This document shows positions 4,927 to 5,454 of a stretch of DNA of 5,727 nucleotides, in pieces. This DNA comes from a virus (taxonomy: Duplodnaviria > Heunggongvirae > Uroviricota > Caudoviricetes), in IMG/VR virus record IMGVR_UViG_2547132272_000015; one strand, given 5' to 3'. Made by a program: the position numbers and the translations under genes. Within the stretch, counting starts at the first letter, position 1; each line of letters opens with the position of its first letter. Below the pieces are notes generated by a model that worked only from the letters and a program-made list of their open reading frames with translations, did not search any database and was not told the origin of the DNA.

Positions 4927-5454
4927 ATGCTAATGAGTAAAGCAGAATATGCTAAACACAAAGGCGTAAGCCGCCAGACAGTTTACGACTGGATCGAGAA
5001 AGGCGAAGTGGTCATGTCCGGTAAAAAAATCGATGTGGAAGCGACAGAGCAGCGGAACAGCCCACCAGCACAGGGAAAAGACGCAGTTTCTGAAATGTGG
5101 CCAGAGAGAACGCTGGAAATGACGTGGGGCGAGTTCTGGAAAGCAGTTAAGGCCAGAGACGGTATAATCCCTGCGCCAGTAACGGACGACGACATACAGC
5201 AACGTGTGCTGGATGCTGCCGGGGAATTAGACTGGGAAGTGCAATTTCTTGATGATGGCGGGATTTGGATGGATGTCGGCGATGCTGAGTTTTATTTCGA
5301 GCAATATGATCTCAGGCAGAATGCCGAACTGGTGATTGGTACGCTGCGACGTGAGGTCTGTTATGTGGCTGATGCTTGTCCTGACGAGCTGGATAACTGG
5401 AGCGAAGCCGGACTAAACGCCCTGGCTGAATGGGAAAAATCAGACCATCAATGA
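4927..5454 (+). CDS. DNA-binding protein with an N-terminal winged-HTH of the Nu1 (small terminase) / AlpA / excisionase type and an acidic Trp-rich C-terminal domain
   Basis: 175-aa ORF with GAGG 8 nt upstream of the ATG. N-terminus SKAEYAKHKGVSRQTVYDWIEKGEV fits the K..LA...GVS..T.Y.W pattern of Nu1/AlpA-type HTHs. Followed by a repeat array. Confidence 0.8.
   Translation: MLMSKAEYAKHKGVSRQTVYDWIEKGEVVMSGKKIDVEATEQRNSPPAQGKDAVSEMWPERTLEMTWGEFWKAVKARDGIIPAPVTDDDIQQRVLDAAGELDWEVQFLDDGGIWMDVGDAEFYFEQYDLRQNAELVIGTLRREVCYVADACPDELDNWSEAGLNALAEWEKSDHQ

Follow-up and report, generated by a model that had tools for sequence, protein, structure and literature searches.

A small-terminase-type DNA-binding domain joined to an orphan acidic domain and linked to a site array in Gram-negative satellites: a tentative packaging specifier

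The stretch of DNA analysed here (the window, 5,727 nucleotides) is taken from the IMG/VR virus record IMGVR_UViG_2547132272_000015, and the open reading frame (ORF) under study, at positions 4927-5454, encodes a 175-residue protein whose gene is followed at once by an array of repeated sites. In 14 genomes, E. coli chromosomes align to 91-98% of the window length with 92-97% identity; its counterpart in strain TUM1881 (locus L001) is the right part of a 14.4-kb island, L001:12391-26832, lying between abgR and smrA. Judged from its sequence, the carrying element is a phage satellite, a small island that takes over the particles of a helper phage, of the Gram-negative phage-inducible chromosomal island (PICI) type, its layout, attachment (att) repeats and size (~10-20 kb) all agreeing with that class. 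The ORF starts with ATG, 6 nt past the stop (4921) of an upstream gene for a 680-residue protein, and is the last late gene of the satellite, as its initial annotation at the end of an operon had implied. The features of the gene and of the array are as follows.

Positions 4914-4917, plus strand: probable ribosome-binding site GAGG, 9 nt before the ATG, as read from the sequence
Positions 4927-5454, plus strand: target gene ('family 1'), encoding the 175-residue protein with a small terminase subunit (TerS) type DNA-binding domain and an orphan domain; closes the satellite late operon
Positions 4927-5058, plus strand: Nu1/TerS-type winged helix-turn-helix (HTH), residues 1-44, recognition region GVSRQTVYDW
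Positions 5059-5103, plus strand: linker, residues 45-59, variable and of low model confidence
Positions 5104-5451, plus strand: acidic Trp-rich alpha/beta domain (C-domain), residues 60-175
Positions 5461-5470, plus strand: site 1, AAAGTGTCAA, 7 nt past the stop codon; inverted pair with site 2
Positions 5489-5498, minus strand: site 2, AAAGTGTCAA
Positions 5515-5524, plus strand: site 3
Positions 5528-5570, plus strand: conserved non-site element GCTGTAAGCCCCGCCATTACTGGGTTTGTGCCAGATTTACC, with core GCCATTACTGG at 5541-5551, between sites 3 and 4
Positions 5596-5605, plus strand: site 4, with CTTAGAAATGCTAAGG next to it at 5615-5630
Positions 5652-5661, plus strand: site 5, with an overlapping half-copy GTGTCAA at 5664-5670 and then TTAAGATTTATTAAGG at 5680-5695

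In the AlphaFold2 model of the protein (41 homologues aligned, pLDDT 89.6), residues 1-44 fold as a winged HTH and residues 60-170 as a confidently predicted alpha/beta domain, with residues 46-54 forming a disordered linker between them. Residues 3-30 match HTH_17 of Pfam below threshold (E 1e-3) and residues 1-42 match PHROG 57, 'terminase small subunit' (E 1.6e-7). Model and weak matches together bear out the winged-HTH N-terminus of the initial annotation, and its description of the remainder as acidic and Trp-rich also stands, as evident from an isoelectric point (pI) of 4.05, 28 D/E against 9 K/R and 6 Trp in residues 60-175 (whole protein: pI 4.33, 8 Trp). The values listed for the structural matches are 7.1 for Pukovnik Xis, 6.6 and 6.4 for the TerS N-domains 7LXS and 6HN7_B, 6.0 for BldC, 5.8 for Cox, 5.6 for RdfS and 5.5 for RppC. 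The choice between a Nu1-like and an AlpA-like fold, which had been left for structure prediction to settle, is not made by the fold alone, since this does not separate Xis, Cox and Nu1; the DNA-binding domain is assigned to the Nu1/TerS type because of its sequence affinity to TerS. Cox-like and excisionase families score below phrog_57 on the protein. The target is not an AlpA: PF05930 gives no match, HTH_17 reaches 19.6 bits against a cut-off of 27 and TIGR01764 16.5 against 28.8. AlpA and excisionases are small single-domain proteins encoded beside int, whereas the target has two domains in 175 residues.

A search of 5.8 billion proteins placed the target in a family of 119 clusters at 90% identity (64-226 residues), whose near-full-length members span ~166-216 residues and are nearly all annotated as hypothetical. 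The clusters with a named source organism all belong to Enterobacterales, with more than 10 enterobacterial genera represented. In the family alignment, residues 1-41 (MLMSKAxYAxHRGVSRQTVYDWIAKGEVVMSGxKIDVEATE) are >90% conserved and the remainder falls to ~35% identity. Peptide patterns of this N-terminus also pick up ORFs in Bradyrhizobium and in a metagenome-assembled genome of Bryobacteraceae; these ORFs are full-length phrog_57 members (E 8e-22 and 2e-35) and overlap the start of gpA-type large terminase (TerL) genes, with a lambda-family portal gene next. Genuine TerS genes adjoining gpA-type TerL are the closest outside relatives of the target DNA-binding domain. A tblastn search of the protein against 50,697 phage records gave no match, the plasmid homologues comprised only three marginal N-terminal matches, and neither the family nor the motif AAAGTGTMAA of its array was found described in the literature searched.

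A 226-residue 'AntA/AntB' protein ending in family residues ~84-175 is encoded at 6001-6681 of the loci L095 and L096, in the order int, AlpA, fusion gene, array and SIR2 defence gene; the replication and late zones have been lost there by internal deletion. The fusion of AntA to the C-domain (P0091) was considered as a modular interaction domain and rejected, its context being an internal island deletion from antA to the target gene.

The array that had been placed just 3' of the gene is indeed present. The 10-mer AAAGTGTCAA occurs five times (four copies on the plus and one on the minus strand) within 5461-5661 and nowhere else in the window, all copies falling in the 210 bp past the target stop codon; 0.53 copies are expected and none of 200 shuffles reached five. 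The extended site consensus is aAAAGTGT(C/A)AA(C/G)(C/T), TTGACA can be read on the opposite strand of every site, and sites 1 and 2 form a hairpin just past the stop codon. No RNA element was recovered from the array by Rfam, and its fold z-score was only -1.7. In closely related islands a sixth site lies 55 bp past site 5, beyond the point at which the window departs from them (after ~5706); aligned to L001:25742-25762, window positions 5707-5727 read GAGCTGGCCCCCTGAAATACCAGACAGT where the relatives carry the sixth AAAGTGTCAA site. This departure just past site 5 indicates that the source island has a different right-hand continuation.

Two further elements accompany the sites. E. coli, Pantoea, Raoultella and related loci keep the core GCC(A/G)TTACTGG of the element at 5528-5570 in the interval from site 3 to site 4. 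Of 47 occurrences of this core in 1.43 Mb, 45 fall no more than 45 nt from a site, where 1.4 would be expected by chance; the element may be a point of assembly, of cleavage or of host-factor action. A second repeated motif, YTAAG-N5-6-YTAAGG, trails each distal site (CTTAGAAATGCTAAGG, TTAAGATTTATTAAGG and, at L001:25769-25784, CCTAAGATTTCCTAAGG), making composite units of ~55 bp, the last copy overlapping the ribosome-binding site of a small downstream ORF. This ORF (59-62 residues, phrog_7271, C-terminus WRKPxxPRR; L001:25784-25963 and L004:10864-11052) trails the array in islands of E. coli, Klebsiella, Serratia and Pantoea, with cargo in between in some.

Gene and array behave as one module across genera. 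At every examined locus with a full-length target gene, AAAGTGT(C/A/T)AA sites follow, beginning right at the stop codon or, where cargo has been inserted, grouped 1.5-3.7 kb downstream. The loci on which this statement is based were fetched by protein identity or similarity alone and come from E. coli, E. ruysiae, Klebsiella, Enterobacter, Pantoea, Rouxiella, Raoultella, Buttiauxella, Serratia, Erwinia, Citrobacter and Scandinavium; the remaining ~19 kb of each holds zero or one site copy. For 67 full-length loci, 301 sites were counted in 27.8 kb beside the genes and 27 in 926 kb elsewhere, a set that was partly ascertained through the motif itself and is hence biased. The order is syntenic across genera, with site 1 (plus) at the stop codon, site 2 (minus) ~28-50 bp on and site 3 (plus), followed by the GCC(A/G)TTACTGG element and then two or three further plus-strand sites ~55 bp apart, each trailed by YTAAG-N5-6-YTAAGG. 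The module remains constant at the 3' end of the late zone, though the island types vary in the helper genes captured, and it is found with differing replication proteins (RepA/AAA_25, Prim-D5 and DUF5906 primase). Where cargo is inserted the array keeps no fixed downstream gene; not being tied to any given downstream gene, it behaves as an autonomous cis site.

The position of the same motif in sister satellites indicates what kind of site it may be. A scan of IMG/VR for the inverted pair of AAAGTGTCAA 10-mers yielded 64 contigs, mostly satellite-sized, about 50 of which carry the target family directly 5' of the array. Seven others carry a 'family 2' protein (MSLMSVSQYAKHAGMSRQALY..., 186-209 residues; 31% identical to the target over residues 2-111) with the same motif array 5' of the gene. 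L063 is one of these seven; two sister satellite protein families, represented by L063 and L066, carry the array in this upstream position. The L063 protein is a full-length phrog_57 TerS (E 2.7e-23) without a neighbouring TerL; it aligns to the target over target residues 3-39 only, and shares 39-41% identity along its whole length with the TerS proteins annotated in Citrobacter phage phiNP and Serratia phage vB_SspM_BZS1 (BZS1). The L066 protein matches TerS over residues 1-76 only, and its island, which holds a DUF927 primase and an OLD nuclease, is inserted in a lambda-type capsid gene.

At five sister loci the sequence GGGTCCT-N22-24-GGGCATTGCGCG lies 87-96 bp ahead of the array, giving the order cosQ, cosN, array and TerS-like gene. 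The cos of phiNP and BZS1 is the same sequence, the left cohesive end (cosL) annotated in BZS1 being GCATTGCGCGCC and phiNP carrying GGGTCCTTCC...CACGGGCATTGCGCGCC before terS, while the cosB region of both phages holds GGTAACA repeats and no AAAGTGTCAA. The recognition region reads SRQ(T/A)(V/L/I)Y.W in the three satellite families against SRKTVT.W in phage TerS. This second lineage (IMG/VR contigs L058, L063, L066, L082 and L093; also L097 and L098) thus appears, from its sequences, to represent an undescribed cos hijacking, in which the cosQ/cosN of phiNP/BZS1 is combined with a private AAAGTGTCAA cosB and a TerS-like protein of the satellite's own. In the E. coli satellite EcCICFT073, the cosQ/cosN is a copy of that of the helper and a private cosB is read by a satellite protein, Rpp, with a TerS-like DNA-binding domain (PMC6739421, PMC9026076). 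Because the sister loci reproduce this situation, AAAGTGTMAA is taken as the R site of the target-type DNA-binding domain, and the target protein very probably binds the sites of its own array.

Whether such binding serves packaging in the target family is a more tentative matter; that it does so, and that the target is a packaging specifier private to the satellite, derived from TerS and comparable to Rpp or Gps, is the reading favoured here, though held with less than even confidence. In this mechanism, the N-terminal Nu1-type winged HTH would bind the AAAGTGT(C/A)AA sites 3' of its own gene, equivalent to the R sites of cosB, and the orphan acidic C-domain, standing in place of the oligomerisation and TerL-binding body of TerS, would contact a helper packaging protein (TerS or TerL). 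The C-domain would thereby couple site recognition to a packaging protein unlike that of lambda, and satellite concatemers would then be picked for encapsidation over helper DNA. The TerS ancestry and the conserved cis linkage make continued specification of packaging the most economical reading. The observations behind it are the predicted fold, a DNA-binding domain descended from TerS, the conserved linkage of gene and array, the cosB position of the array in sister satellites and candidate helpers that lack the motif. The motif is absent from pPE4, Rac-SA53, the phiP27 cos and phiNP/BZS1, and so forms a private code. Packaging recognition was one of the roles proposed initially, along with replication or partition and repression; it is the one retained, but not as a true small terminase.

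Several findings weigh against a packaging role. The confidence placed in it is limited because any known cleavage site is distant and the TerS body is missing: the central self-association and C-terminal gpA-binding regions of TerS are absent from the target, the phrog_57 match ending at residue 42. The C-domain gave no significant structural match and has no sequence relatives beyond the target family; a remote search of it against 1.84 billion representatives returned only 16 proteins, apparently all of the target family by length and match position. No lambda-type cosQ/cosN was found beside the family-1 array, which lies 3' and not 5' of its gene, and the site spacing of 54-81 bp is wider than that of lambda cosB. 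Furthermore, an 85-nt stretch at L001:26565-26650, ~160 bp inside attR, has 84-86% identity to the cos region annotated in phage phiP27 (NC_003356), which is HK97-type and lies between the HNH and terS genes. This phiP27-type cos stands 0.8-1.1 kb past the array in L001, the closest complete island (97% identical), and 3-4 kb away in related islands, and could by itself suffice for packaging. It could also provide a second, independent packaging route; EcCICFT073 also carries two cos sites (PMC6092414).

Just left of the phiP27-type cos, L001:26380-26540 holds three direct and several inverted copies of TTGCGGGTTA, which could be integrase arm sites or terminase-binding sites.

Two other identities for gene and array were rejected. 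The target is not the true small terminase of a helper, as it displays no similarity to the TerS of Rac-SA53, has no tblastn match among the 50,697 phage records and is TerS-like in residues 1-42 only. The array is not a copy of a helper pac or cos, given the absence of its motif from the phages named above and the lack of any match in a BLAST search of the array against phages.

Among known systems, the target would act most like Rpp or a satellite packaging specifier of the TerS/Gps type. Like RppA/B/C of the E. coli PICI EcCICFT073 (PDB 6HN7), it is PICI-encoded with a TerS-like winged-HTH DNA-binding domain. No sequence similarity to Rpp was detected, 6HN7 RppC being missed by a profile search of PDB sequences at E<=10; Rpp has dimerisation helices whereas the 175-residue target has a globular acidic alpha/beta domain, and its array, unlike that of EcCICFT073, lies 3' of the gene without an adjoining lambda-type cosN. 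With TerS of the lambda gpNu1 type (PHROG 57; phiNP, vB_SspM_BZS1) it has in common the fold of the DNA-binding domain, the signature AxxxGVSRxT..W..G and a similar size of ~175-200 residues. Binding of repeated R sites beside the own gene is established for lambda and would apply to the target by inference. In contrast to TerS, the target has no adjacent gpA-type TerL, its gene follows captured tail genes and precedes non-coding DNA, and the motif at its loci is AAAGTGTMAA and not the GGTAACA of phiNP/BZS1. TerS_S of SaPI and GpsA/GpsB of PLE (PMC6092414, PMC11417361) are satellite factors that give the helper motor satellite specificity, headful helpers included; their likeness to the target is a functional analogy for the proposed mechanism only, TerS_S being a full homologue of the helper TerS and GpsA/B unrelated small proteins. 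P2 Cox, BldC and phage Xis are single-domain proteins of 50-90 residues acting on close head-to-tail repeats at promoters or att arms, whereas the target has an extra 115-residue domain, wide site spacing and TerS-like sequence affinity.

A bolder and rather unlikely extension of the packaging reading is that a TerS head grafted on a lineage-restricted acidic domain constitutes a portable packaging adaptor, presenting a private pac- or cosB-like array to terminases unlike that of lambda. A possible motor would be that of the Rac-type myoviruses, the source of the captured tail genes; their terminase comprises a Terminase_2 TerS and a T4-like TerL, presumably a headful system, and one Rac prophage sits 6 kb from the island in TUM1881. 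The GCC(A/G)TTACTGG element inside the array would then mark the point of motor assembly or cutting. If true, this would be a third route of packaging hijack, besides the full TerS copy of SaPI and the TerS heterodimerisation at a shared cosN of Rpp.

How Gram-negative satellites enter helper capsids outside the lambda/Rpp case is still largely unknown, and many PICIs have been set aside as 'type C' or possibly defective, with no packaging module recognisable (PMC11773190). The present module is widespread and has a clear DNA code, AAAGTGTMAA, and an evolutionary series can be drawn from the true phage TerS, through the satellite TerS at a hijacked cos, to a chimera that keeps the DNA-binding domain only. 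A true packaging specifier would improve satellite annotation, would reveal the helpers that mobilise these islands with their defence and virulence cargo, and would offer a short cis site and an adaptor for engineering transducing particles. A regulator would instead provide an example of an exapted terminase DNA-binding domain.

Such a co-opted transcription factor is possible but unlikely. The former TerS domain would act as a repressor or activator at the array, controlling read-through from the late operon into the 3' accessory region, phrog_7271 included, or the expression of that region. The array does stand between the target gene and this conserved small ORF, with the sixth site of L001 32 nt before its ATG; the TTGACA opposite each site and the hairpin of sites 1 and 2 fit regulation as well, a Pantoea homologue bears the UniRef name 'Repressor', and the fold relatives Cox and BldC regulate by binding repeated sites. 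However, a consensus scan detected neither a sigma-70-type promoter nor a terminator inside the array. At several loci 0.7-2 kb of cargo parts the array from the small ORF, at others the array is parted from the target gene, and the downstream genes vary while the DNA-binding domain and the sites are nearly invariant across genera.

Interference with phage packaging is less probable still. The target would then be a dominant-negative TerS-like binder that blocks a phage terminase, or the array would titrate a phage protein, so that packaging of the helper or of a competitor is hindered. The strong acidity of the C-domain is consistent with this, as some DNA mimics and inhibitor proteins are strongly acidic, and so is the absence from the target of the part of TerS that binds TerL. 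Among satellites, Rpp blocks the helper TerS as well as redirecting packaging (PMC6739421), and Gpi of PLE blocks TerL (PMC11417361). Pure inhibition would have no need of a cis array, yet gene and array are conserved together. No candidate helper examined carries the motif, which leaves competition at a phage cosB unsupported.

A role in replication or partition, which the initial annotation had also considered, is very unlikely. The protein would bind an origin, like lambda O, or a centromere, the array representing iterons or centromere; a repeated-site array with a GC content (43-44%) slightly under that of the genes would suit either. The replication gene looked for in the wider island does exist, as a RepA-type helicase. 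The non-coding segment directly after repA (L001:18430-18900), with 28-31% GC and TGTGAG(T/A)A repeats, exceeds all other parts of the island in AT content; it occupies the usual position of a PICI origin and is the likely origin of replication. Moreover, the module co-occurs with the unrelated replication proteins listed above, the relatives of its DNA-binding domain are terminase subunits and not initiators, and no ParA-like gene is present in the island.

An excisionase (recombination directionality factor) acting at the right arm of the attachment site is the least credible proposal: the top structural match to a phage Xis, the further matches to RdfS, Cox and AlpA-type excisionases, the weak HTH_17 and TIGR01764 matches and the closeness of the gene to the right end of the island are outweighed by the AlpA already held beside int, the ~1.05-1.3 kb between array and attR core in L001 (more where cargo is inserted), a spacing of 54-81 bp unlike that of Xis filaments and the sequence affinity to TerS.

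The wider island accounts for the position of the gene. The L001 island is bounded by a 26-bp direct repeat (att core) at L001:12391 and 26807, and its genes run in the order integrase, AlpA (PF05930, E 3e-18), AntA/Bro-type protein, Icd-like protein, DUF4222 protein, RepA-type helicase, ProQ/FinO, PerC, homologues of helper late genes and the target gene. This order follows the four-zone layout that Tommasini et al. described for Gram-negative PICIs (PMC10111431), with int and AlpA, a Bro/AntA zone, a primase or helicase replication zone and a 'late zone' of captured helper genes. A large terminase gene, sought beyond the window, is missing from the whole 14.4-kb island. The gene order, which had been called unusual for a small terminase after a tape-measure-like gene, is odd because the tape-measure gene and its neighbours are captured Rac-type genes and the target is a satellite gene. 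Only window part 2197-4897, covering the tail genes, matches phages, namely Rac-SA53 and the 'Actinobacillus' phage vB_Apl-pPE4 (85-91%). The neighbouring genes in the window are listed below.

Positions 1-453, plus strand: 3' end of the ProQ/FinO gene, and a PerC-family gene at 166-453; typical of Gram-negative PICIs
Positions 859-1452 (197 residues) and 1517-2200 (227 residues), plus strand: phrog_6216/DUF2213 pieces
Positions 2197-2814, plus strand: rac52 homologue (helper tail-assembly gene)
Positions 2879-4921, plus strand: tape-measure/lytic-transglycosylase homologue, 680 residues (657 in Rac-SA53), ~85-91% nucleotide identity to Rac-SA53 and vB_Apl-pPE4

The two phrog_6216 pieces match a single 545-residue helper family ('TolA/nudix' of Rac-SA53, which includes DUF2213) in swapped order, residues 405-545 coming first and 115-328 second. 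A split phrog_6216 pair also stands just before the target gene in Pantoea. The pair gives the impression of a helper head-assembly protein fragment, rearranged and conserved, that might serve in capsid interference. In place of the tail-assembly and tape-measure genes, other islands ending in this module hold baseplate genes (Dit-like, gp18, hub and spike); the pieces of helper tail that satellites keep are thus variable.

In Klebsiella pneumoniae (L003-L005), an E217/Pam3-like tail gene cluster adjoins the island that ends in this module, and no terminase or portal genes were seen on the other side of the island. In L004 a truncated major head gene, covering residues 142-321 of phrog_264, borders the island, which suggests that the Klebsiella islands are inserted in a prophage late gene, as helper-embedded PICIs, the alternative being an elongated late zone.

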